DNA of 64,000 bases. Source: an uncultured Actinomycetes bacterium (GTDB taxonomy: Bacteria; Actinomycetota; UBA4738; HRBIN12). The notes beneath the pieces are model-generated. The model saw only the letters and a program-made list of their open reading frames with translations. It was not told the origin of the DNA and made no database searches. Where the stretch lies: positions 70,206 to 134,205 of the forward strand of contig CAVOYV010000005.1 in the NCBI GenBank assembly GCA_963700855.1, written 5' to 3'. Positions 5,259-20,955 of this stretch are shown here, piece by piece; position 1 is the stretch's first letter; each line of letters opens with the position of its first letter. The position numbers and the translations under genes are program-made.

Positions 5259-7184
5259 GTGGGGCCTGACCGCATCCTCGATCCGCTCAACCCGGCGCAG
5301 CGACAGGCGGCGAGCACCGTCCGGGGTCCGGTCGCGATCCTCGCCGGCGCCGGGACCGGCAAGACCACCACGATCACCCACCGGATCGCGTACCAGGTGG
5401 CGACCGGTGCGTTCGACGCGCGCACGATCCTCGCGGTGACCTTCACCGAGAAGGCAGCCAACGAGCTCAAGGCCCGCCTGTCGCGCCTCGGGGTCGACGG
5501 TGTCGAGGCGCGGACGTTCCACGCGGCCGCACTGTCCCAGCTGTCTCGCCTGTGGACGGCCCACGCCGGCTCCCCGCTCCCGGAACTGCTCGACACGAAG
5601 GCCCCGCTGATCGCGTCCCTCGCGAACGCCCTGCCCCCGCCCCACCGCTTCCTGCCGCGCAGCGAGCTCGCCGGCGAGATCGAGTGGGCGAAGAACCGGA
5701 TGGTCACCCCGTCGGCCTACCTCGAGGTCCTCCGGGTCGAGGGTCATGAGCCGCCGATGCCCGCGGAGCTTATGCACCGGGTGTTCGACGGGTACGAGCG
5801 CCGCAAGTCGCGGATCGGCAAGATCGACTTCGAGGATCTCCTCGGGCACGCCGTCCGGCTCTTCGACGAGCATCCCGACGCGGCCGCCGAGGTGCGCGCC
5901 CGGTTCCACGCCTTCACCGTGGACGAGTACCAGGACGTGAACCCGCTGCAGCAGGCGTTGCTCGACCGATGGCTCGGCGACCGGGACGAGATCTGCGTCG
6001 TCGGCGACGACTACCAGACGATCTACGGGTTCACGGGCGCATCCCCGGAGCACCTGCTGGGCTTCCCGACGCGCTACCCCGACGCCACGATCGTGCGACT
6101 CGAGGAGAACTACCGCTCGTCGCCCCAGATCCTCGCCGTGGCGAACGCGTTGACCCCGAAGCTCGGTGGCTTCGAGAAGTCCCTGCGCCCGACCCGTCCG
6201 GATGGACCGAGCCCGACGGCCCGGGCCTTGCCGGATACCGCGGCCGAGGTCACGGCGGTGATCGAGGGCTGTCGGTCGCTGCATCGCGAAGGCATCGCCT
6301 GGGACGCCCTCGCGATCTTGGTCCGGATCAATGCCCGCACCGAGCCCTACGAAGAGGCGCTCGCGGCCGTCGGCATCCCGTACCAGGTGCGTGACGGCTC
6401 ATTCCTGCGCCGTCCCGGTCCCCGAGCGACGCTGTCCCGGCTGCGACGCGCGCAGGCCGCGGGCTCGGTCGCCGACGCGGTACGAGCGGTGACCGACGCG
6501 CTCGGCTACGACCCGGACAACGCGCCTGACATCGACGAGGAGATCACGCGCCAGGCGGACCTCGGCCGCCTCCGCCAGCTCGCGGTGGAGCACGACGATG
6601 CCCACGGCGATGGCGCCACGGTCGGCGGCTTCGTCGAGGAGCTCACGCATCGCTTCGCCACCGACCGCCAGGGGCGCGGCGTCCAGCTGATGACCTATCA
6701 CCGAGCGAAGGGGCTCGAGTTCGACGGCGTCTTCCTCCCGCGGCTCCTCGACGGAGAGCTCCCCTACCGTTCGCGCCGGTCCGAGGCCGACCCCGATGAG
6801 GAGCGGCGCCTGCTGTACGTGGGGATCACGCGAGCACGAACGCACCTGAGCCTGTCGTGGCCGCGAGAGCCTCGGACGCAGCCGAGCCTATTCCTCGAGG
6901 AGCTCGGGGTGCGGCGTGAGGCACCCGCGCCCTCCGCCTCGAGGCCGCGGGTGGCCGCGCCGGGCGGCGGTCCGACGTTCGAGCGCCTGAAGGCCTGGCG
7001 GAGGGACCGCGCTCGAGCGGACGGCGTGCCCGCCTACGTCGTGTTCCACGACGCCACGCTCGCGGCGATCGCCGAGCTCGCCCCCGGCGACCTGGCCGGC
7101 CTCGCGACGGTCTCCGGGGTGGGACCTACGAAGCTCGAGCGCTACGGCGATGAGGTCCTCGCCGTCGTCCGGAAGGGCCCCTAG
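5259..7184 (+). CDS. uvrD2: UvrD/Rep-family SF1 DNA helicase with C-terminal HRDC domain (UvrD2-like)
   Basis: [26 protein letters not shown] (motif I), VDEYQDVNP (motif II), [28 protein letters not shown]. The C-terminal [37 protein letters not shown]...[13 protein letters not shown] is HRDC-like. Confidence 0.85.
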
Positions 7185-7966
7185 CCGGCGGCGATCCAGT
7201 CGGGGACGTCGCCGAGTCGATCGAGCACGACGTCTGGGGCACCCCGTCGCTCGTCGCCCTCCCGGTACTTCCCGGTACGGACCAGCACGCCGGAGCATCC
7301 CACGGCCTTCGCGCCCATCACGTCGCTGAGGACGTCGTCGCCGATCATCGCCGCGCGCGCGGCGGGCACCCCCAACAGGCGAAGGCCCGTCTCGAAGAAC
7401 GCCGGCGCCGGCTTGCCGCAGATGGCCGCGCGTACCCCGGCCGCTTCCTCGAGTCCCGCGACGTAGGCGCCACCGTCGAGCTCCCACCCACGCTCGGTCC
7501 GCCACGAGAGGTTCCGGTGCATCCCGATCAGCGTGGCGCCCTCCATGATCCGCCGGAACATGCCGTTCACGATGTCGTACGCGAAGGCGTCCGAGGCACC
7601 ACCGATCACGAACACGTCCGCGTCCTCCGGCTCCTCCACCCTCGTGACGCCGTCGAGGTCCTCGCCCGGGTCGCCGTCCGTGAGCACGAACACCGGCGCG
7701 CCGGGATGGTGATCGCGGAGGTAGGCGGCGGTGGCGGTGACCGCGGTCACGATCTCGTCGGCGCGGACGTCGAAGCCCGCTCCGCCGAGCGTCCGGGAGA
7801 GATCGCGGCGCGTGTGGGTCGTGGTGTTCGTGATCAACCGGAACGGAACCCCATCACGGCGGAACCGCTCGATGGCTGCGATCGACCCCTCGATCGGCTC
7901 CCAAGACACGGTGAGCACGCCGTCGATGTCGAGCAGGAGACCGTCAACCCGTGCCACGGCGGGCAC
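7181..7966 (-). CDS. HAD-superfamily (subfamily IIA-like) hydrolase
   Basis: LLLDIDGVL (motif I), LITNTT (motif II), GKP..., [16 protein letters not shown] (motif IV). I chose the GTG start at 7966 because the rest of the 498-aa ORF overlaps the upstream gene and is Arg-rich junk; the start is uncertain by a few codons. Confidence 0.75.
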
Positions 7967-8882: not shown

Positions 8883-10567
8883 CTATGCGAGACCTGGATC
8901 CGCCACATGAGGGGCCCGGCGACGGATGTCGGCGGCGACGGACCGGGTCGCCAGCACGATCAAGTGGTTGCGAGCACGAGAGCTCCCGACGCGCAGGTAG
9001 CGCCCGACGTCCTCTCGGTGTCGATCGCCGAGTTCGGCCAGGATCACCACGGGTCGCTCGAGACCCTTGAACCCGTGCACGGTCGACCACAGGACGGTGC
9101 CGTCCTCGACCACGTCGGACAAGACGTAGGGGCCGATCGCACGCCGACGCCACAGGAGGCTCTTCTCGCGCCCCGGCGGCGTCAGGACCACGATGTCGTC
9201 GAGCGCGAGCCCCTCCGAGTCGATCAGGTTCTTCAAGACGACCTCGAGCGTTCGCACCAGCCCGTCCTCTCCGTCGTAGTCGAGGACGTCGACGTCCCGG
9301 CCGGCAGGACCCTTCGCGATCCCCGCGCGTGATCCGGACTCGAAGAACACCGAGACGAACTCCGCGATCGCGCGCGTGTTCCGCAGGTTGTGCGGGAGCG
9401 GCGGCAGGACATCGGTGGGGTCGAGGGGGAGCTCCCCGCCCTCGTAGAGGACCTGGGAGTCATCGGAGAACAGGTAGAGCAGGCCCCGGTCCGGCTCACG
9501 ATGGAGCGCGAGCAGGGCGGGCCACCACCAGGCGCGGAAGTCTTGCGCCTCGTCGACCACGATCGCGCCGTACCGAGGACCGAGCGTCCGCGCCGCCCGC
9601 TCCAGGAGCTCGGGAAGGCGCTCCTCGTAGTACGTGCGGTCGTCCGATCCCGTCGGCGCGGGCACGACGAGACCGGCCTCACGAGCCAGATCGGCACAGA
9701 GCTCGTGGAAGTGGGCGACGTGGAGGTTCTCGACCCCGTCGACGCTGGCTCGCAGGTGCGCGGCAAGCCTGACGTTGAAGCAGGTCAGCAAGGTGGGTCG
9801 ACCAGCCTCGGCCAAGGTGCGCGCGATCGAGGTCGCGAGCAGCGTCTTTCCCGACCCCGGCGGCCCCGTCACCACCGCGCGTGTGCGGTTCAGCACGAAG
9901 GCCTTCGTCCAGGCCTGCTCGTCGGTGAGCTCGACGATCGTGCGGTCCTCTTCGCGGAACAGGAGTTTGAGCGGGTCCGCACCTCGACGGCTGCGCCGAG
10001 CGCCTGCTCGACCGCGAGCATGCCCGACTCGCCGAAGCGCCGGCCCTCGTGGCGCCAGGTGCGCATCACCTCGCGCACCCGGGCTTGCAGGTGATCGAGG
10101 TCGTCACGGTCGATCACGACCGCAGCCGGGGCGCCCGGGTGCGCGTCGCGCCCGTAGATCGCATGCGGCATCGCCACCGAATACCCGAACGAAGGACGCC
10201 ACCTCGACCAGCCCGCCCGCGCCTCCAAGATCCGCACGAGGGAATGCATCTCGTCGCGGGCTTGATGGAACGGATCCTCGTCGAGCTCGTGTCGGCCGCT
10301 GCGACCCCCCTGGGTCCAGCGCCGAGTCTGGGGGTCGTACGTGAGCTCTCCCCCCTTCGCCTCGATCACCAGGAGCCCGTCGACGGGGTGGATCACGACG
10401 AAGTCCGCCTCGCCTTGCTCCAGGCGTCCGTTACGACCGGCGAGCGCCCAATCGACCGAGTGGAAGATCACGTACTCATCGTCGAGTTGCTCCATGAATG
10501 CCTCGTAGAGGAGACGCTCCGCGGAGCTCTCGGTGTGGAGCATGGGGAACGGCACCATCCGCGCCAC
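8883..10567 (-). pseudogene. NERD (PD-(D/E)xK nuclease-related) domain fused to an SF1 UvrD-like helicase. One frame break at about 9980.
   Basis: The N-terminal piece 10567->~9980 carries GEADFVVIHPVDGLLVIEAKGG (a D...ExK nuclease motif). The C-terminal piece reads ...PLKLLFREEDRTIVELTDEQAWTKAFVLNRTRAVVTGPPGSGKT (Walker A), VVDEAQDF (Walker B), HGFKGLERPVVIL, RARNHLIVL. The two pieces join around gtgcggacccgctc. Confidence 0.75.
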
Positions 10568-10628
10568 CCCCGGATGCTAGCCCCCGGGGCATGGACCCCG
10601 ACCACAAAGCAGTAGAGGATTAGGGGCC

Positions 10629-11297
10629 ATGGCGCAACGTTCCCCAGTTCTCGTCGTGCTGTTGATCGCAATCCTGGTCGGATACGTGGCGGGTGGGCGG
10701 CTTCGGCGATTCGACCAGATACACATCCACTGGTGGGCCCTGGCCTTCAGCGGTGTGGCGCTTCAGATGCTCCCCGCTCCGAACATCGCAGGCATCGATT
10801 CCGGCACCACAGGAGCAGCCCAGCTGACCTTGTCCTACAGCCTGCTCCTGGTCTTTCTCATCGTGAACAGGTGGATTCCCGGTTCTCGCGTGATGGCCCT
10901 GGGGCTGCTGCTCAATCTCGCTGTCGTCTCCCTGAATGGAGGGATGCCAGTGAGCGCTGAGGCTATCCAGCGGGCAAGCGGATCGAGCCAACGCCCAACA
11001 ACCGAGACGAGCGCGAAGCACCATCTCCTTACAGAGGAGGACCTACTATCACCGCTTGGTGACGTGATTCCCGTGCCGCCACCGGCAGGAGTCGTTCTAT
11101 CCGTCGGTGACCTCTTGTTGTACGGAGGGATGGCGTGGTTCGTGATTCAGGTCATGCGGGGACGGAGTCGCGTGAACCCTCGGCCGTTGGCGGTGTGGTT
11201 CCCGAAGTACCGGGGGAAGCACGCTCCGGATCACTGGAGGATGCCTGCCCGCTATCGAGTGTCTGCTCACGCTGAAGCAGGGCAGTCGGGAACCTGA
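10629..11297 (+). CDS. DUF5317-like integral membrane protein
   Basis: 222-aa ORF with several TM helices. The NGGMPVS and SVGDLLLYGG motifs match my memory of the DUF5317 family. GAGGA lies 9 nt upstream of the ATG. The C-terminal about 45 aa overlap the convergent kinase gene and may not be real. Confidence 0.6.
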   Translation: MAQRSPVLVVLLIAILVGYVAGGRLRRFDQIHIHWWALAFSGVALQMLPAPNIAGIDSGTTGAAQLTLSYSLLLVFLIVNRWIPGSRVMALGLLLNLAVVSLNGGMPVSAEAIQRASGSSQRPTTETSAKHHLLTEEDLLSPLGDVIPVPPPAGVVLSVGDLLLYGGMAWFVIQVMRGRSRVNPRPLAVWFPKYRGKHAPDHWRMPARYRVSAHAEAGQSGT

Positions 11298-12678
11298 CGG
11301 TGACGGTGGTTCCCTCTCCCGGAGCTGATTGCACGTCGAGGGAGCCTCCGCCCACTTTCGCCCGCTCCCGCATCATTGCCATACCGTAGTGTCCTTCAGG
11401 GCCTGGCGCGGAGGTGTCGAAGCCGATCCCGTTGTCTCGCAATCGCAGGACGATTTCGTCTGCTTCCTCAGCCACGCTGATCCACATATCGGTCGCTTGG
11501 GCATGCTTGAGGGCGTTCATGACACCCTCCCTCGCGACGTGGTAGACAAGCAATGCAATCGGCGCGGGAAGTGGGACCTCCTCCACGTCGCGGTGAAACA
11601 CTACGCCGGAGTCGCGGCCAACTTCGTCAGTGAAGGACTCCAAGGCCTCCGACAACCCCTTCGCGCCAAGCGGTGAGCGGTGGAGATCACGGATAAGCGC
11701 CCGGATCCTGTCGGAGGTGTCCTGCTTGGACTCCCTAATCTTCTCCAGCTGGGCCTCGAGTTCCCGCAGGTCGCCCTTCTCAAGCATCTTTCGCGCGATG
11801 TCAACCTGGAGACTCAGCCTGAAGAGAACCTGGGCAAGATCGTCGTGCAGATAGCCAGCGATCTTCAGTCGCTCGTCGGCCCTCTCTTCCGCCATCGTGT
11901 TGGAGAGCTCACGCAGGATCTCCTCTCGCTCTTGAAGCTCCTTGTGGGCCGCTTCTAGAGCGTGGGTGCGCCGGAACATTTGGCGTGCAAACAGCAGCGG
12001 GGCCAGCACCACAAAGACCGAGAGGAAGCCCAATTGTCCAACTTCGAACAACTTCGCCATCGCCGCACCGAGCACCCCAAGGCCCATGTAGCTGACCAGG
12101 AACTCCTGGCCCTTGGACAGCTGCCGAACGACGGCCAGCGGCGAGAGGCGGTAGATGAGACTGACGAGCACCGCCACGAGGCTGATATTGATTGCGTAGT
12201 CAACAGCCGAGGCGAGTAGAGAGGCCACTGTCAACCAGCCGATGGCCAACTCGACTGGTTCTTGCGGCGTAGCGAGCGAATGAAGAACTGAACTCCCGGC
12301 CCATACTGCGAGCGCCACCTGACATCTGTTGAACACCGCCGTGAGCGGAGCTATCTCTCGCCGATACTCCCGAGGATCCGAGGATCCGAGGAGTGCGGCC
12401 AGGGCCGCTGCGACCGGCGCGTAGAGAATCGCAACGGAAATGAGCAGTGGGAACCCGAGGCCCACTTGGACACCTCGCCACGCGGGCGCGGGCAGCAGTT
12501 CCACGACGGCCACGAGGAGAATCCAAATCGGTAGCTCAGCGATGAGGACGCTGGGATCTCGGGCAATCTCAAACGCCAAGCCACCCAAGGTCGGCACGAT
12601 CACAGCCAGCGCGAAGAGAGAGGCTGCGTTCGGAGCCAGCAGCCGCATGGGGCGTTGCGATGGCTGCGCTTGTGCCAT
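11152..12678 (-). CDS. Membrane sensor histidine kinase, HisKA_3 (NarL-type) class, paralog 1
   Basis: Polytopic N-terminal domain, coiled-coil linker, H-box YLHDDLAQVL, N-box EGVMNALKHAQA, DNGIGF, GMAMMRERAKVGGGSLDVQSAPGEGTTVTVRFP. The start at 12678 (MAQAQPSQRPMRLL) has GGGAGGA immediately upstream. The maximal ORF reaches 12840 but would run through a dense operator-like repeat region. Confidence 0.8.
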   Translation of the reverse strand: MAQAQPSQRPMRLLAPNAASLFALAVIVPTLGGLAFEIARDPSVLIAELPIWILLVAVVELLPAPAWRGVQVGLGFPLLISVAILYAPVAAALAALLGSSDPREYRREIAPLTAVFNRCQVALAVWAGSSVLHSLATPQEPVELAIGWLTVASLLASAVDYAINISLVAVLVSLIYRLSPLAVVRQLSKGQEFLVSYMGLGVLGAAMAKLFEVGQLGFLSVFVVLAPLLFARQMFRRTHALEAAHKELQEREEILRELSNTMAEERADERLKIAGYLHDDLAQVLFRLSLQVDIARKMLEKGDLRELEAQLEKIRESKQDTSDRIRALIRDLHRSPLGAKGLSEALESFTDEVGRDSGVVFHRDVEEVPLPAPIALLVYHVAREGVMNALKHAQATDMWISVAEEADEIVLRLRDNGIGFDTSAPGPEGHYGMAMMRERAKVGGGSLDVQSAPGEGTTVTVRFPTALLQREQTLDSGQASSSDPERASPGTSGTTPPTAEGSRDSVPA

Positions 12679-12828
12679 TCCTCCCGATTTGACCACGCGA
12701 ATGGGGACAACAGCATCAGCCATTCCCGGGATATGGGCCGATACTCCATACGGCGTAGCGCGAAGGAGGACCTTGTCCCCCAGATAGGGGTCCCCCGATA
12801 CTTCGCCCGTGTCCCCTAACCGGGGAGC

Positions 12829-12850
12829 CGCCGGGGTCATGACCCCGGCG
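12829..12850. promoter_or_regulatory. Perfect 22-bp palindrome, candidate operator between kinase 1 and micro-ORF 1
   Basis: CGCCGGGGTCA|TGACCCCGGCG. I checked every one of the 11 base pairs by hand. It lies 34 nt upstream of the micro-ORF 1 ATG. Confidence 0.35.
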
Positions 12851-12883
12851 CACTACAACGAATAGGACGAAAGGGGCCAGACA

Positions 12884-12970
12884 ATGAAGCTCCTCAAGCG
12901 GCTCGCAATCGCCGTTGGATCGCTGACCGCCCTCGTATTGGCTGGTGGCGCGCACTTCAAAGCCGGCTGA
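12884..12970 (+). CDS. Micro-ORF 1, a 28-aa hydrophobic/signal-peptide-like peptide: MKLLKRLAIAVGSLTALVLAGGAHFKAG
   Basis: ATG at 12884 and TGA at 12968-12970, with AAAGGGG about 8 nt upstream. It is a paralog of the micro-ORF at 17049..17138, with only synonymous differences over the last 10 codons. Not in the ORF track because it is under 60 aa. Confidence 0.6.
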   Translation: MKLLKRLAIAVGSLTALVLAGGAHFKAG

Positions 12971-12991
12971 ACGGACCAACCGCAGAGCTGA

Positions 12992-13025
12992 GGCGGCCCG
13001 GCGCTCTGGTCGGGCCGTTTCGCTT
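12992..13025. terminator. Hairpin with T-rich tail between convergent micro-ORF 1 and the SARP-family gene
   Basis: CGGCCCG (12994-13000), a 10-nt loop, CGGGCCG (13011-13017), then TTTCGCTT. Confidence 0.4.
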
Positions 13026-13063
13026 GTCTGGATCACTCGCCCAGTCAGTTGCGTAGTCGCTCG

Positions 13064-16000
13064 CTAGCCGGATAGCTTCCGAGTCCTCTCCAGGGCACCC
13101 TCCGACACGCCCTTGCGCGCGAAGAGTTCACGCGAAAGACCGAGTTCCTTGTCGGCGGCCTCTTGGTCACCCACATCCGAGAGCAGCCTCGCGGCATCTA
13201 GGTGAACCGAAGCTGCCATGGCTAGGAAGTCCGTCCTATCCGCGATTGCAGCCGCCTCCAGAATCAATGAGATGGCGGCTTCCGAATCTCCACGCCCTGC
13301 ATGAAGATTCGCCTGTACCTGGCGCCAAAGAAGTTGAGACGCCCAGTCGTCGTCTGCGGCGAGGCTGCGGCTCTTGTCGGCGGCCGCAGCGGCGAGTTCG
13401 TAGTCGCCCACGCGAAACCATGCCTCCCCGAGGAATCCCTCAACAGTGGACCGGAGGTTGCTTTCCCCCATTTGCGTGAGACGAGTGGCAGATCTCGTGA
13501 GGAGTGCGGCTGCGGCAGCGGGCTCTCGGAGCGCAAGGTGAGTAAGGCCCGCGTAGAGTTCGGCATCCGCCACGCGGAAGGCGCCGCCCACCTCTCGTGC
13601 AAGGCCAAGCCCTTCCTCAAGTCGGCCTCGTGCCCCCGCCTCATCGCCCAGAAGCGCCAGGGCGTATGCCAGCCTCATCACCACCTCGGGGCGGGGTCGA
13701 CGGGTGGGGTTGGACAGCAACTGCTGGCACTGAGCAATGAAGACCGGCAGTGGAGTGGTCCCGTGTAACGCCATGAGTTGCTGCGGGAGATCTACCTCGC
13801 GTTCGTCACCCGCCTCTAACGCGAGCCGCGCACCGTGTTCGAATGCCTCGATTCCTTCATCGAGGCGACCCTGAAGCGTCTGAGCCTCTCCGAGAAGCCG
13901 GTACGCACGCGCGAGACCCGCAAGATCGCCGAGCGAGGACAAGGCCGACACAGCGGCTTCAGCGAATGCCTGGGTCTCAGCAGCCCCGCGCTCCTCCGGG
14001 CGCGTGTAGACGTCGAGCTCCATCAGCTCAATCTCCAGCCTCCACCGGAGCGCTTCATCTCCTGATTCCCTTGACGCGGCAAGTCCGGTGGTAAGTACCT
14101 CTCGCGCCTCATCGAATCGTCCGAGGTCGAAGAGTGCAGCGCCGCGAAGACGTGCAAGATCGCCTCGAAGGTGTTGATCTGATGTCGCACATGCCAGCGC
14201 GCGCTCGAAGAGACTGGCAGCCGCCGTTGCGTCATCGAGCGCGAAGGCCCGTCGACCTGCCGCAGCGAGATGTCCTGCGGCGGCCAAGCCGATCGCGACT
14301 CCATGGCTCCCGTCAGAAGTACCAAGGTGGTACGCCGATTCGAGGTGGAAGCCGATTGTCTCTTCGACCTCGGTGAGTCTGTCCCCAGCCCGATCCGCCA
14401 GCGAAGTCCCTAGCCGCTCATGATCACGAGCTCGCCGATCCCTAGGAATGGCGCTGTAAGCCACGTCACGGATCAGGAGGTGCCTGAATGCGTAGGCACT
14501 GCTTCCCCGGCTTGTGAACCTCCGAAGATCAAGAAGACCCCGCCTACACAGAGAATCAAGAGCTCCGACAAGATCGTCCATCGCGAGATCGGGTCGAACA
14601 TCTCCCAGATCATCCAGGTCGAACTCCCGCCCGACGACGGCAGCGGCTTCAAGGGTATCCCGCTCAGCTCGTGGCAGGAGGTCAACTCGGGCATCAAGCA
14701 AAGCCTTCACGGTCGGCGGAATTGGAACCACACTCAGGTCCTTGGTCGCCTCCCACCGGCCTTCCCGCTGGTGAAGGTGCCCATCGTCGATCAGGACCGA
14801 AAGCACTTCCTCGAGGAATAGCGGATTCCCTTCTGTTGCGCTGGTTATCCGCTCTCTCACAGCCAGGCTCAGGTCACTCGGGCCAAGGAGGCCGCTGAGC
14901 AGCTCGTCCATTTCGGCAGACGTAAGGGGCTCAAGTCGCACGGTCACCGCGTCGGATCCGGCCCCACCCCACGACGGCCTGCGTTCGTCAAGTTCTGGAC
15001 GGGCGCTGCAGACCAGGACGAGGGGTTCACCCACTACGGTGGACGCGACGTACCCGACAAGATCGAGTAGAGGCTTTTCAGCCCACTGAAGATCCTCCAG
15101 AACCGCAACAAGTGGTTGGCGGCGAGCCCCAATTGCAAGGCAGCGCCGTATGGCCCAGAACGTTTCGTCTCGCGTCGAGGACCCATCCGCTACCCCGATG
15201 AAGGCCCCAAGAAGGTCAACCAGCATCTCCCGATCCAGCTCGTTGGCGCTGAACTCCTCGAGTCGACGACGCGCCTCCGAAGCCGCTCGCCCTTCTTCTA
15301 TTCCCACGACACCTCGAACAACGTCGGCGAACGGAGACAGACCCACGTCGCGACCGTATGGAACGCACCGCCCTGCCACGACGTCGACGCGATCGCCAAG
15401 CCCTGCCGTGAACGCCTCGATCAAGCGGGACTTCCCGATGCCGGCAGGACCAAGGACGGCAAGCATTGTCGGGCGCCGGTCTACTATCGCTCGCTGGGCG
15501 GCGTCCCGCAGTCTGACCAGATCACTCTCGCGCCCGATCAGCGGGGCCGAGAGCCGTGGAGCGGCGCGTGTGTCGGCAACATCTCGAAGTCGATAAGCCA
15601 CGAGGGGAGCCTCGTCGTCGTCAATCACAAGAAGCTGCGTCGAATCAACCGCAGCGACAGCACCGGCGAGTCTCAGGGTGGCTACGCCGAGCAGCACCTC
15701 ACCGGGACGGGCCTTTCTGGCCAGGAGGTCGGCAACTTCAACCGGATCATGCGTCAGAAGCCGAACGTCGCTGCCTATCTCAACTAGGACCTCGCCTGTC
15801 GACACGCCCAGACGTACCTCAAGGCCGAGCGCGGCCGCTGCTCGCTTGAGGGCATCGGCCGTTCGAACCGCCCGCTCTGCGTCGTCCTCGTGAACCGCAG
15901 GCAATCCGAATACGCCAAGAAGGCGGCCCGAGCGAGCTGTAGGACACCAACCGTCGAGGTTGGAGACGGCACCCCCGAACAAGTCCGAGATGGCGGTCGT

Positions 16001-16933
16001 AGCTGCCAGGACGTCTTCTGGATCCCCCTTGGGCAGTCGGAGGGCCACGACGGTGACAGTCTTCCGGACCTCACGAGGCTCCACCGCAGGAGGGGCCGCC
16101 TGCATCAGATCCGGGTCCCCCGCGAGTATCCTCCGCTCCAACTCCCCAATAGCCAGACCCGGCTCCATCCCGAGCTGCTCTGACAAATCCCGACGAAGCG
16201 AAGCGAGTTCGGCAAGCGCGTCTGCCTGCCGACCGCTGCGATACAGCGCAAGAGCAGAGAGCTCGCAGATGCGTTCGTCCAGTGGCAGTTCAGCGCGGAG
16301 ACGTAGCAAGTTGGGCAAGGCCTCGGCGTGTTGGCCGAGCGCAAGTTCAGCCTCGCAACTGAGAACAAGCGTCAGGTCGCGCAGGTCTTCCAGCTCACGT
16401 AGGGAACCGGGAGCTAGGCCTGGGAGATCCAGGCCGGCAAGCGGGGCTCCCCGCCACATGGCGCTGGCCTGGCGGAATGCCTCGAGCGCTCGCTCCGTCG
16501 AGCCCTGGGCGAGTAGTTCGCGTCCTTCCTCGACGAGATCTCGGAAGGCAGATGCATCCACTTGATCACGGTCAACAACGAGGGAGTACGCGGAGCCATT
16601 TGTTGCCAGCGCGTCGGAGAATCCCGCGCCTTTGAGGACTGAGCGAATCTTGGAGATATGGACCTGAAGCGAGGTCCTGACTGTGGGAGGCGGGTTGTCA
16701 CCCCAGACGATGTCGATGAGGGTCTCGGCGGCGATCTCCCTGCCCTCCTGCATCACCAGTACAGCGAGAACCGCCTGGACTCGAGGACCACCTACCGCGA
16801 GTTGCCTCCCGTTCACTCGCAGCTCGAGAGGGCCCAGGATGCCGTAATGGACTGACTGATCCACGTGCCCTCCCTGTGGGGCGTCGGCGCCATCAAGTGG
16901 CCGACGGGCCGCACTATCAACGACCCAGGACAC
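13064..16933 (-). CDS. Large multidomain regulator: OmpR-type wHTH + BTAD (SARP), degenerate class III cyclase-homology domain, P-loop STAND/AAA ATPase, C-terminal TPR-like repeats
   Basis: YGILGPLELRVNGRQLAVGGPRVQAVLAVLVM...IDIVWGDNPPPTVRTSLQVHISKIRSVL is wHTH. AMWRGAPLAGL...LALYRSGRQADALAELASLRRDLSEQLGMEPG is BTAD. VTVVALRLP...RLLGVFGLPAVHEDDAERAVRTA...RLGVSTGEVLV is cyclase-like. VLGPAGIGKSRL is the P-loop, and LVAVLEDLQWAE follows. About 450 aa of helical repeats come after. The likely true start is the GTG at 16864 (GGGAGGG 3 nt upstream, giving VDQSVHYGILGPLEL). Confidence 0.85.
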   Translation of the reverse strand: MSWVVDSAARRPLDGADAPQGGHVDQSVHYGILGPLELRVNGRQLAVGGPRVQAVLAVLVMQEGREIAAETLIDIVWGDNPPPTVRTSLQVHISKIRSVLKGAGFSDALATNGSAYSLVVDRDQVDASAFRDLVEEGRELLAQGSTERALEAFRQASAMWRGAPLAGLDLPGLAPGSLRELEDLRDLTLVLSCEAELALGQHAEALPNLLRLRAELPLDERICELSALALYRSGRQADALAELASLRRDLSEQLGMEPGLAIGELERRILAGDPDLMQAAPPAVEPREVRKTVTVVALRLPKGDPEDVLAATTAISDLFGGAVSNLDGWCPTARSGRLLGVFGLPAVHEDDAERAVRTADALKRAAAALGLEVRLGVSTGEVLVEIGSDVRLLTHDPVEVADLLARKARPGEVLLGVATLRLAGAVAAVDSTQLLVIDDDEAPLVAYRLRDVADTRAAPRLSAPLIGRESDLVRLRDAAQRAIVDRRPTMLAVLGPAGIGKSRLIEAFTAGLGDRVDVVAGRCVPYGRDVGLSPFADVVRGVVGIEEGRAASEARRRLEEFSANELDREMLVDLLGAFIGVADGSSTRDETFWAIRRCLAIGARRQPLVAVLEDLQWAEKPLLDLVGYVASTVVGEPLVLVCSARPELDERRPSWGGAGSDAVTVRLEPLTSAEMDELLSGLLGPSDLSLAVRERITSATEGNPLFLEEVLSVLIDDGHLHQREGRWEATKDLSVVPIPPTVKALLDARVDLLPRAERDTLEAAAVVGREFDLDDLGDVRPDLAMDDLVGALDSLCRRGLLDLRRFTSRGSSAYAFRHLLIRDVAYSAIPRDRRARDHERLGTSLADRAGDRLTEVEETIGFHLESAYHLGTSDGSHGVAIGLAAAGHLAAAGRRAFALDDATAAASLFERALACATSDQHLRGDLARLRGAALFDLGRFDEAREVLTTGLAASRESGDEALRWRLEIELMELDVYTRPEERGAAETQAFAEAAVSALSSLGDLAGLARAYRLLGEAQTLQGRLDEGIEAFEHGARLALEAGDEREVDLPQQLMALHGTTPLPVFIAQCQQLLSNPTRRPRPEVVMRLAYALALLGDEAGARGRLEEGLGLAREVGGAFRVADAELYAGLTHLALREPAAAAALLTRSATRLTQMGESNLRSTVEGFLGEAWFRVGDYELAAAAADKSRSLAADDDWASQLLWRQVQANLHAGRGDSEAAISLILEAAAIADRTDFLAMAASVHLDAARLLSDVGDQEAADKELGLSRELFARKGVSEGALERTRKLSG

Positions 16934-16962
16934 CGTAGCCCGAAATGCAGAGTCTGTTTAGA

Positions 16963-16984
16963 CCCCTTTAGGTCCCCTTTTAGG
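16963..16984 (+). promoter_or_regulatory. Two direct repeats, CCCCTTTAGG and CCCCTTTTAGG, 11 nt start-to-start, upstream of micro-ORF 2. Candidate SARP-type box.
   Basis: Repeat 1 is 16963-16972 and repeat 2 is 16974-16984. A -10-like CAGAAT (16994-16999) lies 9 nt downstream of repeat 2, and the ATG of micro-ORF 2 is at 17049. Confidence 0.3.
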
Positions 16985-17048
16985 GGCGCAAAGCAGAATC
17001 GCCTCACAAGCCCCAAGAGACCGGGGCCGACAAGAGGAGGAGGCGGAC

Positions 17049-17138
17049 ATGCTCAAGACCATCCGGCGGATCGCTCTCGCCCTTGGCTCCCTGGCAACCC
17101 TGGCTCTGGCGGGCGGCGCGCACTTCAAGGCTGGCTAA
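17049..17138 (+). CDS. Micro-ORF 2, a 29-aa hydrophobic/signal-peptide-like peptide: MLKTIRRIALALGSLATLALAGGAHFKAG
   Basis: ATG at 17049 and TAA at 17136-17138, with a strong SD GAGGAGGAGG ending 6 nt upstream. Paralog of micro-ORF 1. Not in the ORF track because it is under 60 aa. Confidence 0.6.
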   Translation: MLKTIRRIALALGSLATLALAGGAHFKAG

Positions 17139-17213
17139 GCTACGAGGCAATCTGCCGCGCCAGGGCATCCCTTCGTCGGGAAGCAATCCATATCTGGCGG
17201 GGACACGTGAGAA

Positions 17214-17257
17214 GGGCCGGTCGCGGCGTCTGCAGTTGGAGATGCCGAGACCGGCCC
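17214..17257. terminator. Long imperfect hairpin between convergent micro-ORF 2 and kinase 2
   Basis: GGGCCGGTC (17214-17222) pairs with GACCGGCCC (17249-17257). An inner GGCGTCT/AGATGCC pairing extends the stem. There is no clear T-tract. Confidence 0.3.
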
Positions 17258-17283
17258 TGACTACGCAGACGAGAGCTCTCGGG

Positions 17284-18702
17284 TCAGAGGCGTGGCTTGA
17301 ACCACGCTTCGACGTGAGTGCCACCTCCTGGGCTCGTTCGAACTTCTATTGATCCGCCAGTTGCTTCGGCTCTTTCTCCCATGAGATCGAGTCCGAAGTG
17401 CCGAACATCCCGATCGCGCTCTGGGTCAAATCCCTTGCCATTGTCGGAAACGGTTAGTGAAACCAAGCCGTCCGTACTCCTCAAATCTACCCATGCCTTG
17501 TCCGCGCCAGAGTGGCGCGCCACATTCGTGAGGGCCTCTCGCAGAACCTGATAGATGAGTAGCTCTACTGCTGGGTCGGCTCGCACCGAAGAATCGATGT
17601 CGGACGATATGTCGATCCCGGTCTCGTCATGTACATGAGCTACGAACAGAGATGCGGTTTCCACAAGGCCAGCGTGCCCAACCGGTGACTGCCGGAGACC
17701 GAAGATAACCTCACGAAGGAGAGCCGCGGCCTTCTCTGCCGTCTCGACGACAGCAGGCACGTCCTTCTCGAGATCCAGCAGACGGCCACTTCGGTAGTCC
17801 TGGCGAATGACATGGGCGTGGAGAGTCACTGTGTAGAGAGCCTGCAGCACGTCGTCGTGTAGAGCCTCGGAAATCCGATTCCTCTCGTCTCGCCGCTCAT
17901 CGGCGATGCGTTCGTCAACGCGCATGAGCGCGGCTCCCCTCCGCCGCAACTGCAAGCTGATCCGTTCAAGTCGGTGCGAGTTCAAGAAGACCTGCCTGGC
18001 CAAGGCCACAGGGGCCACAGCTGCGACCAGCGAAACTGGGCCTACGGCCGCGTAGGCTTCAGCAATGAGCAGCCCCGTCAGGGCGAAGCACAAGTAGTGC
18101 GCGGCGAACGCGCCAGGGGAACCGATGTACATCTCCTTGACGACGTCTCGGAGAGCCCGCCGATTGGACACCGACGAGAAGAGAGCAACGCTTGCGTAGT
18201 TGACTGCCGTGTCAGCCACGATAGCTGCGATGGCGGCAGCCAAGGAGACGGGCCACTGCCCAACCTCACCCCCAAGCCAGACGAAGGTGAAGCCAGCGGC
18301 TAGAACGCTAAGGCTCGTCTGTGAGTGATTCCACACTGCCTTTGACAATGCGATCCTCCCCCGCAACTCCGCCTGCGTCGTCGCAGCGACAAGCGCCACT
18401 GCTCCCGCCGGGATCGGGCCGAGAACGAAGGAACACGCGAGCAGAACGGGCAGATCCATCGACAGCGCGGGTCTCGTGCTTCCAAGCGAGACAGTCGCGA
18501 ATGCGGCCGCGGCAGTAGCCACCATCCAGATAGCCAGCTCCCCACCCGCGGCAGGACGCAGGCCCGGATTCAAGTAGACGCCAAGGAGGACGAGGGAAAC
18601 CGCTAGAACCGCACCGACCACGGCCATCAGTCGCACGGTCCAACTCTCCGGTGAGGGCGTTGGCTGTCCCTTGACTCTCGCGTGATCGGTCGTCGCCGAC
18701 AT
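17284..18702 (-). CDS. Membrane sensor histidine kinase, HisKA_3 (NarL-type) class, paralog 2
   Basis: Same architecture as kinase 1: polytopic N-terminus, H-box ALHDDVLQAL, N-box REALTNVARHSGA, DNGKGF, GLDLMGERAEATGGSIEVRTSPGGGTHVEAWF. The start at 18702 (MSATTDHARVKGQ) has GGGGGGAG 3 nt upstream. The maximal ORF extends to 18810. Confidence 0.8.
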   Translation of the reverse strand: MSATTDHARVKGQPTPSPESWTVRLMAVVGAVLAVSLVLLGVYLNPGLRPAAGGELAIWMVATAAAAFATVSLGSTRPALSMDLPVLLACSFVLGPIPAGAVALVAATTQAELRGRIALSKAVWNHSQTSLSVLAAGFTFVWLGGEVGQWPVSLAAAIAAIVADTAVNYASVALFSSVSNRRALRDVVKEMYIGSPGAFAAHYLCFALTGLLIAEAYAAVGPVSLVAAVAPVALARQVFLNSHRLERISLQLRRRGAALMRVDERIADERRDERNRISEALHDDVLQALYTVTLHAHVIRQDYRSGRLLDLEKDVPAVVETAEKAAALLREVIFGLRQSPVGHAGLVETASLFVAHVHDETGIDISSDIDSSVRADPAVELLIYQVLREALTNVARHSGADKAWVDLRSTDGLVSLTVSDNGKGFDPERDRDVRHFGLDLMGERAEATGGSIEVRTSPGGGTHVEAWFKPRL

Positions 18703-18833
18703 GTTCTCCCCCCTCGGTCGGCCCTGTGTGAGCAGCGCCTCGCCAGATGCGTTCTTGTAAAGCACGCGGTCGCTCACAGACAAGACCTCGGGGAGCAGAA
18801 AGAGCGACAAGTTCGGGCAGTACCATCGGCGGC

Positions 18834-19523
18834 ATGAAGCCCCGCGTGCTGCTCGTCGAGGACGAGGAGGCGATCTCCGAACCGCTCGCCGAACTCCTCG
18901 CTCGCGAGGGGTTCGATCCCGAGGTCGCGCCTACGCTCGACGCCGCCGGGCGAGCGCTCCACGCGAACCCACCGGACCTCGTGCTCCTCGACGTGATGCT
19001 GCCCGACGGCGACGGTCGCGAATTCGCCCGCGATATCCGCAAGACCTCGGACGTGCCGATCGTGATGCTCACCGCTCGGGGGGAGGAGATCGACCGGATC
19101 GTCGGCCTCGAGCTCGGCGCGGACGACTACGTCGTGAAGCCGTTCAGTGCCCGCGAGCTGATCGCGAGGATCCACGCGATCCAACGGCGCGGGCGGGGCA
19201 CGGCGCGCCGAGGCACGATCGAGATCGGCGATCTCCAGCTCGACCCGGCCGCCCGCACGTGCACCAAGGGAGGCCAACCGCTCGAGCTTGCCGCGAAGGA
19301 GTTCGATCTGCTCCACATGCTGATGACCGCAGCCGGCACGGTCCTGACCCGAGAGCAGATCATGGACGAGGTGTGGGACCCGCACTGGTTCGGACCGACG
19401 AAGACCCTCGATGTCCACGTCTCGTGGCTCCGGAAGAAGATCGAGGACGATCCCACGGCGCCTCGCTACATCACGACCGTGCGGGGTGTGGGGTTCCGGT
19501 TCGCAACCGTCGAGGACCTCTGA
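18834..19523 (+). CDS. OmpR/PhoB-family response regulator
   Basis: MKPRVLLVEDEEAI...DLVLLDVMLPDGDG...VVKPF is a receiver domain. LELAAKEFDLLHMLM...LDVHVSWLRKKIE...ITTVRGVGFRF is wHTH. Confidence 0.9.
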   Translation: MKPRVLLVEDEEAISEPLAELLAREGFDPEVAPTLDAAGRALHANPPDLVLLDVMLPDGDGREFARDIRKTSDVPIVMLTARGEEIDRIVGLELGADDYVVKPFSARELIARIHAIQRRGRGTARRGTIEIGDLQLDPAARTCTKGGQPLELAAKEFDLLHMLMTAAGTVLTREQIMDEVWDPHWFGPTKTLDVHVSWLRKKIEDDPTAPRYITTVRGVGFRFATVEDL

Positions 19524-19557
19524 GCGGGCTGGCTGGGCAGGAAGGAGACGGGACCCG

Positions 19558-20955
19558 ATGCGTCCGATGCGGCTCCGATCCCGGCTCGTGCTCGCCTTCG
19601 CCTACATCCTGCTCGCGGTGCTCGTCGCGCTCACCGTGCCCCTCGCCGTCAACCTCGCACGCCGCGATCAGGCCCGCCTCGAGACCGACACCCTCCTGAC
19701 GGCGCAGACGCTCGCCGCCTACGTGGGCGCCGAGAACCTCACGGACCTCGATCGCCTCCAGGTGATCGCCGACGCCGCCCCACCGGAGATCGAGCGTGTC
19801 GTGATCATGGGCCTCGACGGCGTCGTGGTCTACGACTCCTCGGGAGGGTCGGTCGGCGCCAACTTCGCGAACGGGCGCCGTCCCGAGGTCGACGAGGCGC
19901 TGCGAGGCTCCCCGAACGCCGAGGTCCGCTACAGCCAGACCGAGGCGCGGAACATCCTGGTGGCCGCCGCGCCGATCATCGACGAAGCTCAGGTCGGTGC
20001 GATCCGGCTCACCCGCGACTTCACCGAGGTCGACGATGCTCGGCGGCAGAGCGTCATCGGGCTGAGCGCGATCGGGGTCGCGGCGCTCGGCGCGGGGGTC
20101 TTGATCGCGTTCGGTCTGGCCGGATCGCTCAGCGAGCCGATCCAGCGGCTCGCGACGACCGCGCGCCGGCTCGGGGGTGGTGATCTCTCCGCCCGCACCG
20201 GCGATGTCGCCGGCAGCGCGGAGGTTCAGGAGCTGGCCGGCTCCTTCGACGAGATGGCCGACCGGCTCGAGCGCGCGGTTCAGGCGCAACGCGAGTTCGT
20301 GGCGAACGCCTCGCATCAGCTCAGGACCCCGCTCACGGGGATGAAGCTGCGGCTCGAGACGGCGGCAGCCGACGCGCCGCCGGGCGACCTCCGCCACCAG
20401 ATCGAGGCGGCGGAACGGGAGGTGGACCGGCTCTCGGCGATCGTGGACCGACTGCTCGCGGTGTCACGCGACATCGAGCGTGGCGTGCCGACCGAGGTCG
20501 AGCTGGGCGACGCCGTCCGCCGCGCGGTCGATCGGTGGTCGGAGCGGGCCAAGCGTAGGGACAGCACCTTGGTCGTCGCCGGACGAACCGCCGCCGTTCA
20601 GGCGAACCCCACCGACGTCGACCAGATCCTCGACAACCTGCTCGACAACGCCCTCGCCTACGCCCCGGGCACGGTCGAGATCGAGACGGGGACGTCGGAT
20701 GGGCGCGCGTGGCTGAGCGTCCGCGACCACGGACCCGGCATCCCCGCGGCGGAACACGAACGCGTCCTCGAGCGCTTCTCCCGGGGGCAGGCCGCCCCGC
20801 CGGGCGGTTCCGGGCTCGGCCTGGCGATCGCTCGAGAGCTGGCGCAGAAGTGGGGCGGTGACCTGACGATCTCCGATCCCCCGGACGGTGGCACATCGAT
20901 CAGGGTCCAGCTCCGGACCGCGACCGAGCCCCACCCACCCGAGGAGAGCCCATGA
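19558..20955 (+). CDS. Sensor histidine kinase (2 TM, HAMP, HisKA, HATPase_c), partner of the OmpR-type regulator
   Basis: MRPMRLRSRLVLAFAYILLAVLVALTV (TM1), H-box FVANASHQLRTPLTG, N-box LDNLLDNALAYAP, DHGPGIP, GGSGLGLAIAREL. GGAGA lies upstream of the ATG at 19558. Confidence 0.85.
   Translation: MRPMRLRSRLVLAFAYILLAVLVALTVPLAVNLARRDQARLETDTLLTAQTLAAYVGAENLTDLDRLQVIADAAPPEIERVVIMGLDGVVVYDSSGGSVGANFANGRRPEVDEALRGSPNAEVRYSQTEARNILVAAAPIIDEAQVGAIRLTRDFTEVDDARRQSVIGLSAIGVAALGAGVLIAFGLAGSLSEPIQRLATTARRLGGGDLSARTGDVAGSAEVQELAGSFDEMADRLERAVQAQREFVANASHQLRTPLTGMKLRLETAAADAPPGDLRHQIEAAEREVDRLSAIVDRLLAVSRDIERGVPTEVELGDAVRRAVDRWSERAKRRDSTLVVAGRTAAVQANPTDVDQILDNLLDNALAYAPGTVEIETGTSDGRAWLSVRDHGPGIPAAEHERVLERFSRGQAAPPGGSGLGLAIARELAQKWGGDLTISDPPDGGTSIRVQLRTATEPHPPEESP

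Follow-up and report, generated by a model that had tools for sequence, protein, structure and literature searches.

Nearly all known small membrane proteins that modulate sensor kinases come from Enterobacteria, and the reviews searched list none from Actinomycetota. In the enterobacterial MgrB-PhoQ pair, a single-pass microprotein with its N-terminus inside and its C-terminus outside the cell acts on a membrane sensor kinase, and regulatory circuits govern its expression (PMC8404706, PMC12648545). The connectors SafA and YoaI link separate pathways, as the regulator of one pathway induces a small membrane protein acting on the kinase of another, for instance in the chain from EvgS/EvgA through SafA to PhoQ. 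In Streptomyces, the large SARP regulator AfsR, which carries NTPase and TPR regions, directly activates the adjacent small-protein gene afsS through direct repeats in the promoter (PMC10972967). The present study concerns a stretch of 64,000 nucleotides from an uncultured Actinomycetes bacterium (contig CAVOYV010000005.1; the whole stretch is called the window hereafter), in which two very small genes, here named pep1 and pep2, lie among two orphan sensor kinases (HK1 and HK2), a SARP/STAND regulator and a membrane protein of the family DUF5317. We propose, with a probability of about one in two, that the pep products may be membrane-resident accessories or tethered ligands of intramembrane-sensing kinases.

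The locus resembles several described systems in parts. Like MgrB, the pep product is a predicted single-pass, N-in/C-out microprotein, and it is proposed here to bind a membrane sensor kinase. However, MgrB has 47 amino acids, including a periplasmic region that contains Cys, and its gene lies away from phoQ, whereas the pep tail has 3–5 residues, pep always adjoins its kinase and neither kinase has an outside domain; the two proteins share no sequence similarity. The connector logic of SafA and YoaI would recur in the proposed route from the SARP through pep2 to HK1 and HK2, but the inducer would be a SARP/STAND protein rather than a response regulator, and the microprotein is also encoded by a second copy with constitutive wiring. 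The comparison with AfsR and afsS is limited by the repeats, which are CGTT(T/C)ATCGNN there and TTAG heptads here, and by the SARP itself, whose middle region is cyclase-like/AAA_16, like that of PimR-type SARP-LAL regulators. The LiaF-LiaS and BceAB-BceS systems likewise contain HisKA_3-type kinases that lack an outside sensor domain and depend on co-encoded membrane partners. In the present locus, the accessories would instead be a 28-residue peptide and DUF5317, no response regulator is linked, and the kinases are two paralogues.

Two peptide-signalling systems also deserve comparison. The RNPP/Rgg systems (Phr-Rap, SHP-Rgg, PapR-PlcR) share with the locus a short peptide gene divergent from a TPR regulator that apparently controls it, a control suggested here by the operator architecture, and a variable, specificity-like C-terminus. 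Yet the regulator here is not of the RNPP family, conservation in the peptide is highest in the leader, the 'mature' part would have just 3–5 residues, and no export or import genes are linked. Agr (AgrB-AgrD-AgrC) similarly combines a small precursor peptide, a polytopic membrane protein of about 200 residues and a polytopic kinase in one locus, but pep has no Cys for a thiolactone and DUF5317 has no fold match in the PDB. No AgrB or AgrD Pfam family was found on DUF5317 or the peptides, and no LytTR domain among the Pfam-scanned neighbouring genes, for which no dedicated LytTR search was run. The module fits none of the RNPP, Agr, twin-arginine (Tat) or type-I toxin systems; by analogy, it would work most like MgrB, SafA and YoaI, with a SARP arm like that from AfsR to afsS, and without homology to any of them. 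A first-pass annotation of the window, made from its letters alone, knew of no such system in high-GC Gram-positives, and our literature searches and the reviews likewise give no actinobacterial counterpart.

The HK1-side, ancestral copy pep1 (12884–12970, plus strand) encodes the 28-residue protein MKLLKRLAIAVGSLTALVLAGGAHFKAG. The SARP-side copy pep2 (17049–17138, plus strand) encodes the 29-residue protein MLKTIRRIALALGSLATLALAGGAHFKAG and carries the NCBI annotation 'hypothetical protein'. Each is preceded by a Shine-Dalgarno site (AAAGGGG for pep1, GGAGGAGG for pep2) and followed by a GC-rich hairpin. The hairpin 3' of pep1 is terminator-like, with a 13-bp stem and then GUUUCGCUUGU (12985–13025, plus strand), and the convergent genes pep2 and HK2 are separated by a long GC hairpin (17213–17258, unstranded, z = -4.5), a candidate bidirectional terminator. 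Where the C-termini are shared, the codons of the two genes are synonymous variants (GGA/GGC, TCG/TCC, TTG/CTG, GCT/GCG, AAA/AAG, GCC/GCT). All genuine copies have a GGAGG-type Shine-Dalgarno site 6–9 nucleotides ahead of an ATG or GTG, and nearly all relatives have a hairpin 20–50 nucleotides past the stop. Moreover, over 52 unique pep proteins ascertained through the kinase, entropy summed by codon position amounts to 19.8, 9.7 and 35.6, and this dominance of the third position is the signature of a translated gene. Public annotation pipelines call the exact pep sequences, but unevenly. On this comparative evidence, pep1 and pep2 are genuine, paralogous genes of an unnamed microprotein family. 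The two micro-ORFs picked out in the first-pass annotation are therefore confirmed, with Shine-Dalgarno sites, hairpins, synonymous differences and recurrence in 35 genome and 70 metagenome loci. Its gene order (kinase 1, pep1, SARP-STAND-TPR, pep2, kinase 2) matches the ORF and domain scan of the window, and its strands are also correct, with pep1 divergent from a membrane kinase and pep2 from the TPR regulator.

The family was sought in two ways, and loci are cited below by numbers with the prefix L. A degenerate DNA pattern for GS.x.L.LAGGAH, run over 185,579 species genomes, returned 51 loci. In 35 of them the match is an ORF of 27–29 codons ending 3–5 codons past the His, and 33 of these 35 are labelled Actinomycetota or Actinomycetes metagenome-assembled genomes. 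The remaining 16, from other phyla or cultured strains, have the match inside a long ORF; since about nine chance matches are expected, their number is roughly what chance predicts. They include Desertimonas flava, the sole match in a cultured actinobacterium, as well as Bordetella petrii and Sphingobium chungbukense, the other cultured-strain matches, all of which were rejected as chance matches. Two genuine module contigs, L054 (DASTLN010000137.1) and L053, bear the labels Dehalococcoidia and 'bacterium', likely through binning or labelling issues because every other carrier belongs to Actinomycetota. As the pattern forced the core motif, the family was re-ascertained through the kinase, by searching metagenome contigs with an alignment of the HK1 sensor (A1), which gave 80 loci. 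A peptide hidden Markov model applied to these loci gave matches at E <= 1e-6 and noise at E > 3, with none between. Judged from these scans, the family occurs only within a clade of uncultured Actinomycetota.

Linkage to the kinases is strict. In all 70 of the HK1-ascertained metagenome loci that have at least 290 nucleotides 5' of the sensor match, pep lies on the opposite strand; an HK2-type kinase precedes in 28 of 30, and DUF5317 lies downstream of HK1 in 31 of the 33 with room for it. Seen from the peptide, HK1 adjoins pep in 30 of 35 loci, and of the other five, one is truncated at the locus edge, one carries an IS3 insertion and three hold orphan or degenerate copies. The insertion is an IS3-type transposase (OrfA-like) in L034 (7002–7280), between the HK1-side pep promoter and the expected place of HK1, and thus explains the missing kinase. 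The conserved core has the order HK2 (forward), pep (reverse), HK1 (forward) and DUF5317 (reverse), and contigs with HK2 relatives have a gap of about 350 bp between HK2 and HK1 that holds a single opposite-strand pep gene. In the wider conserved synteny, an OmpR regulator with its HAMP kinase is divergent from HK2, and a NERD helicase follows DUF5317. The SARP is optional and arrives with an extra pep copy, so the co-occurrence of five gene types, raised as a check in the first-pass annotation, stands for pep with HK1 (70/70), HK2 (28/30) and DUF5317 (31/33) and falls short for the SARP. The comparison indicates that a single pep gene is ancestral and that the SARP, like the second copy, was added to it.

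Several copies and flanks have features of their own. Locus L012 has two tandem SARP-side pep copies (7017–7240), three pep copies in total. The SARP-side copy of L034 (4633–4720) is frameshifted, a pep copy in L010 (5418–5504) has no proper N-terminus, and the SARP-side copy of L001 (8567–8656, MKKLQRIFLALGTLAAFAMGGGAHWRVP) has GGGAH in place of AGGAH. In the window (8883–10567 and 18747–20955) and in L001, L003, L014 and others, a NERD-domain protein and an SF1-type helicase lie beyond DUF5317, and an OmpR-type regulator with a HAMP kinase lies divergent from HK2. The G+C content of the module is 0.58–0.66 (window 10300–18700) and that on either side is 0.68–0.73.

The anatomy of the microprotein was derived from the same 52 proteins, with residues numbered from His = 0. 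A basic stub at the N-terminus, M-(K/R)-x-x-(K/R)-R, is followed by a 17-residue Ala/Gly/Ser/Leu helix, the motif A-G-G-A-H and a tail of 3–5 residues of the form His-(aromatic/aliphatic)-(K/R)-hydrophobic. Length is fixed without indels, the start codon always standing 23 residues ahead of His. R-18, A-4, A-1 and H0 are invariant, as is a K/R at -19 and +2. G-3 occurs in 51/52, G-2 in 48/52, and A-14, A-8 and S-11 in at least 90% each; position +1 is aromatic in 39/52 and position +3 is hydrophobic. The protein has fewer than 100 residues, a basic N-terminus and one predicted transmembrane helix, the 17-residue core having a mean hydropathy of 2.0 in pep1 and 1.5 in pep2. The predicted topology places the stub in the cytoplasm and the tail outside. 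The hydrophobic part is conserved at least as strongly as the neighbouring proteins: mean pairwise identity of pep is 65%, and HK1 sensor relatives are 44–57% identical to the window protein with a mean column identity of 57%, a different measure that gives the scale only.

Many of these features also suit a signal peptide, and the first-pass annotation took both products for Sec- or Tat-type signal peptides with almost no mature domain. The n-h-c layout is present, with a K/R-rich n region, an h region of about 13 residues and AGGA as the c region, small residues occupy -3 and -1, and just 3–5 residues follow the putative signal-peptidase site in each of more than 100 pep genes, which does not agree with the export of a mature domain. 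The Tat part of the claim fails, because the twin arginine is not conserved (position -19 is K in 29/52 and R in 23/52, without F-L-K context). Nor is the shared HFKAG end conserved in the family, as only H-x-(K/R)-x is. The peptides have no sequence match in Pfam, NCBIfam or PDB at permissive thresholds, hence no homology to MgrB, SafA or any other named small protein, and a tblastn search of the peptide against plasmids gave no match. A double-glycine leader of the ComC/bacteriocin type was rejected, because the leader here is hydrophobic and does not show the acidic and hydrophobic spacing conserved in that type, and because the called neighbours include no C39 ABC transporter gene. A leader-peptide or attenuator role was also rejected, given a terminator after pep and a convergent next gene.

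The tail looks like a specificity determinant, because it varies between genomes but matches between old paralogues. HFKAG is one of about 30 tail variants, and in six of seven two-copy genomes the tail after His is identical in both diverged copies. The matched tails are HFKAG (twice), HFRAG, HIRF (twice, one copy frameshifted), HMRF and HFKIN. These paralogues still differ at 7–10 of 18 body residues, and in most genomes their tail codons are synonymous variants (AAA/AAG, GCC/GCT, CGC/AGG/CGG). Among between-genome pairs with 7–10 body differences, fewer than 1% share the tail. The SARP-side copies show 4–6 differences to those of other genomes as against 7–10 to their own HK1-side copy, and have in common a derived Thr at -11 or -8. 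Being nearer to each other than to their own partner copies, they point to an old duplication with maintained tail identity. Such a genome-specific, paralogue-matched tail is predicted by both a pheromone and a membrane-tethered ligand.

HK1 (11152–12723, minus strand) has a MASE9-like membrane domain, below the Pfam cut-off, followed by HisKA_3 and HATPase_c; its reading frame stays open as far as 12840, but translation probably begins at the ATG at 12678 or 12723, because conserved pep promoter DNA fills 12741–12830. HK2 (17284–18702, minus strand, 472 residues in the annotated form) is a paralogue of the same architecture, with 30% identity across sensor and core. Both have intact H, N and G boxes and about seven hydrophobic membrane segments with conserved intramembrane polar residues, short loops and no sizeable outside domain. 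In predicted architecture, both are intramembrane-type sensors. By NCBIfam, the kinase core is similar to LiaS, and in the literature MASE9 is described solely as a membrane sensor domain of HD-GYP proteins. A search with E. coli NarL found no NarL-type response regulator in the window or the related loci, and the OmpR-type regulator nearby is paired with a HAMP kinase of its own.

The third candidate partner, DUF5317 (10629–11297, plus strand; Pfam PF17248, E=2.9e-26), has five predicted transmembrane helices, a small beta-domain and a basic C-terminal tail. An AlphaFold2 model (mean predicted local distance difference test score, pLDDT, 78.6) also has five helices and the small beta-domain, and gave no PDB match at E<=0.001. 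Relatives are about 60% identical, which makes DUF5317 more conserved than HK1 and HK2. By the positive-inside rule, the beta-domain is placed outside the membrane. Its alignment shows invariant KHH, D138, D145 and SxGD, a cluster that could bind a metal or form an active site. No papers on DUF5317 were found in a literature search. The 3' ends of the convergent HK1 and DUF5317 overlap by 146 nucleotides in the window (11152–11297), and the overlap measures 143–152 nucleotides in all three genomes checked (window; L001 7628–7779; L003 13110–13252). The DUF5317 tail within it (RENPRPLAMWF.YRGKHAP.HWRMPARYR) is conserved as protein, so the overlap is real, and it could couple expression of the two genes.

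The promoters divide the pep copies into two types, as revealed by cross-locus alignment of their upstream regions. In the divergent region between pep1 and HK1, a palindrome ATAC-N10-GTAG (12741–12758, unstranded; CTAC-N10-GTAG in relatives), conserved across loci and 5' of the pep1 promoter, is a candidate operator. It is followed by a promoter-like TTGTCC-N18-GATACT with a spacer palindrome CCCCC-N5-GGGG (12773–12802, plus strand), which occurs exactly only once in the window, and by a second palindrome, GTCCCC-N5-GGGGA (12811–12826, plus strand), in the predicted 5' leader of pep1. This HK1-side layout recurs in 98 of 112 pep copies as CTAC-N10-GTAG, then TTGTSS-N18-GATAST with the same spacer palindrome, and then (G/A)TCCCCC-N3-5-GGGG in the leader, the last element being present in nearly all HK1-side copies. 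The count of 98 refers to the promoter-like block in the general form TTG-N21-GATAST. A generic promoter and terminator scan gave nothing useful. An Rfam scan of 10000–19500 at E<=1 was empty, so that no known riboswitch or small RNA explains the conserved intergenic DNA.

The second type appears to be wired to the SARP/STAND regulator. This protein of 1289 residues (13064–16933, minus strand) combines, by Pfam and NCBIfam, an OmpR-type winged helix (Trans_reg_C), BTAD, a cyclase-like/AAA_16 NTPase region and TPR; its best NCBIfam matches are AfsR-like and to a cyclase/kinase fusion. Upstream of pep2, the heptads TTAGACC, TTAGGTC and TTAGGGG (16958–16986, plus strand) stand at 10- and 12-nucleotide spacing, unique in the 64 kb with 0.00 expected, and form a candidate SARP operator. 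A -10-like hexamer CAGAAT (16994–16999, plus strand), read from the sequence, begins 7 nucleotides past the last heptad. Nine of ten second-type copies, which are not beside HK1, have two or three direct TTAG (once TTAC) heptads spaced 10–12 nucleotides apart, mostly 11, and in eight of these nine an NANNNT hexamer follows the last heptad by 7 nucleotides. SARP sites are two or three heptameric direct repeats, classically in 11-bp units, that lie upstream of the -35 or overlap it (PMC10972967), and the candidate pep2 operator fits this definition with its heptads at a period of about 11 bp.

Furthermore, an extra pep copy is divergent from the SARP in all seven loci with a visible SARP 5' end (window, L022, L012, L021, L063, L001 and L034). 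The pair lies either between HK2 and pep1 or beyond DUF5317, and from this variable placement the SARP and its pep copy appear to move as a unit. A distant SARP in L013 has no adjoining peptide gene. Given the SARP-type operator at the SARP-side copy, the SARP would most simply act on pep2 and not the reverse. Most likely, pep2 is a target of the SARP, in the manner of afsS and AfsR, or else a SafA-like connector.

Intramembrane-sensing kinases such as LiaS and BceS depend on accessory membrane proteins. In the proposed mechanism, pep would stay in the membrane and bind the HK1/HK2 sensing complex, possibly together with DUF5317 as the sole supplier of an outside domain. As an accessory subunit or tethered ligand, it would set kinase activity, while its tail would contact a co-evolving partner. 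The HK1-side copy would be expressed from its own sigma-70-like promoter, and the conserved palindromes may be feedback sites for an unlinked cognate regulator. The SARP/STAND/TPR protein, switched on by its own input, would activate pep2 and raise the dose of microprotein, thereby feeding a second signal into the kinases with the connector logic of EvgA, SafA and PhoQ and the gene layout of AfsR and afsS. This kinase-modulator role is favoured because the hydrophobic part is conserved in residues as well as length, the tail resembles the end of an interfacial helix, the kinases lack a sensor domain of their own and the SARP appears to act on pep. The first-pass annotation had named MgrB/SafA-like modulation as an alternative; kinase linkage and the conserved hydrophobic part now support it as a mode of action, but not as homology to MgrB or SafA.

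Some observations weigh against this proposal. Its support for binding, localisation and translation is wholly comparative. The helical periodicity of conservation and small residues peaks at 100 degrees without significance (permutation p = 0.23), and therefore no packing face is claimed. Mutual information between the tail and columns of HK1, HK2 or DUF5317 gave no signal above control peptide positions, save for K/R(+2) with one HK1 column, which probably reflects clade structure. The tails of the two copies in L001 differ, HFRAG on the HK1 side and HWRVP on the SARP side, as the only exception to tail matching, and partial gene conversion of the 3' end could conceivably be the cause of the identity elsewhere. 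Additionally, a signal-peptidase I site would suit the n-h-c layout, with its invariant small residues at positions -3 and -1, equally well, and a regulator beside a peptide gene is also the layout of a pheromone positive-feedback loop.

The last two points lead to the rival that survives best, although we consider it unlikely. Here pep would be a signal-peptide-only precursor, inserted N-in/C-out and cut by signal peptidase I after A-G-G-A. The released H-x-(K/R)-x(-x) tetra- or pentapeptide would be sensed outside by HK1 and HK2, as in Agr and Com, or taken back into the cell to the TPR domain of the SARP, as RNPP peptides are, with the SARP-driven pep2 as positive feedback. The canonical n-h-c layout with A-1 in 52/52 and G-3 in 51/52, together with the invariant His that would stand first after the cut, agrees with such processing. 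The tail is pherotype-like in varying between genomes and matching between old paralogues, a TPR-bearing regulator divergent from pep apparently controls it, and the membrane-only sensor domains are like those of AgrC and ComD. But ordinary signal peptides do not have a highly conserved hydrophobic region of fixed length, and helices that end at the membrane interface typically carry an aromatic-basic-hydrophobic stretch like this tail. The neighbourhood has no conserved genes for processing, export or Opp, though they could be elsewhere in the genome. To our knowledge, no mature product of 3–5 residues directly behind a signal peptide has been described, which also counts against secretion. 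The earlier suggestion of a Phr/SHP-like pro-peptide read by the TPR regulator keeps the functional link of peptide to SARP, the near-invariant -3/-1 residues and the specificity-like tail. It loses on the regulator, which is SARP/STAND and not RNPP, on the conserved leader and on the direction of control, since the SARP appears to act on pep2. A broader version would be a peptide-based cell-cell or cell-envelope signalling system of a type undescribed in Actinomycetota, in which a genome-specific H-x-K/R-x tetra- or pentapeptide freed by signal peptidase or DUF5317 is read by the two intramembrane-sensing orphan kinases, the SARP-driven second precursor is an amplification loop and the tail variants are pherotypes; it is slightly less probable still.

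Rather improbable, by comparison, is that pep would be a small subunit or assembly factor of DUF5317, as KdpF, CydX and AcrZ are for their complexes, with the kinase linkage arising only via DUF5317. DUF5317 does belong to the same conserved core (31/33), and it supplies the sole outside domain, whose invariant His/Asp cluster lies on the side of the membrane where the pep tail has its invariant His. Against this, the pep promoter region is common with HK1 and not with DUF5317, orphan and SARP-side pep copies have no adjoining DUF5317, and no covariation signal was seen. A type-I-toxin-like or membrane-perturbing hydrophobic peptide, also considered in the first-pass annotation, is highly improbable: pep is indeed small and hydrophobic with its own promoter and terminator, but its HK1 synteny is strict and vertical (70/70) and not mobile or patchy, its Shine-Dalgarno site is strong and exposed, individual small residues are conserved unlike in pore-forming toxins, and 10000–19500 contains no Rfam family, no further search for an overlapping antisense RNA having been made.

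The reading of pep as a membrane-resident accessory or tethered ligand makes the family a clean comparative case, with its linkage to two orphan intramembrane-sensing kinases, a co-evolving-type tail and a second copy wired to a SARP/STAND regulator. As all carriers are uncultured, tests need heterologous systems. If true, it would show how kinases without a sensor domain can get input, and it would provide a non-antibiotic target gene for a large SARP as well as the first functional context for DUF5317. Genes of 27–29 codons, which annotation pipelines call unevenly, may thus be core parts of signalling modules.

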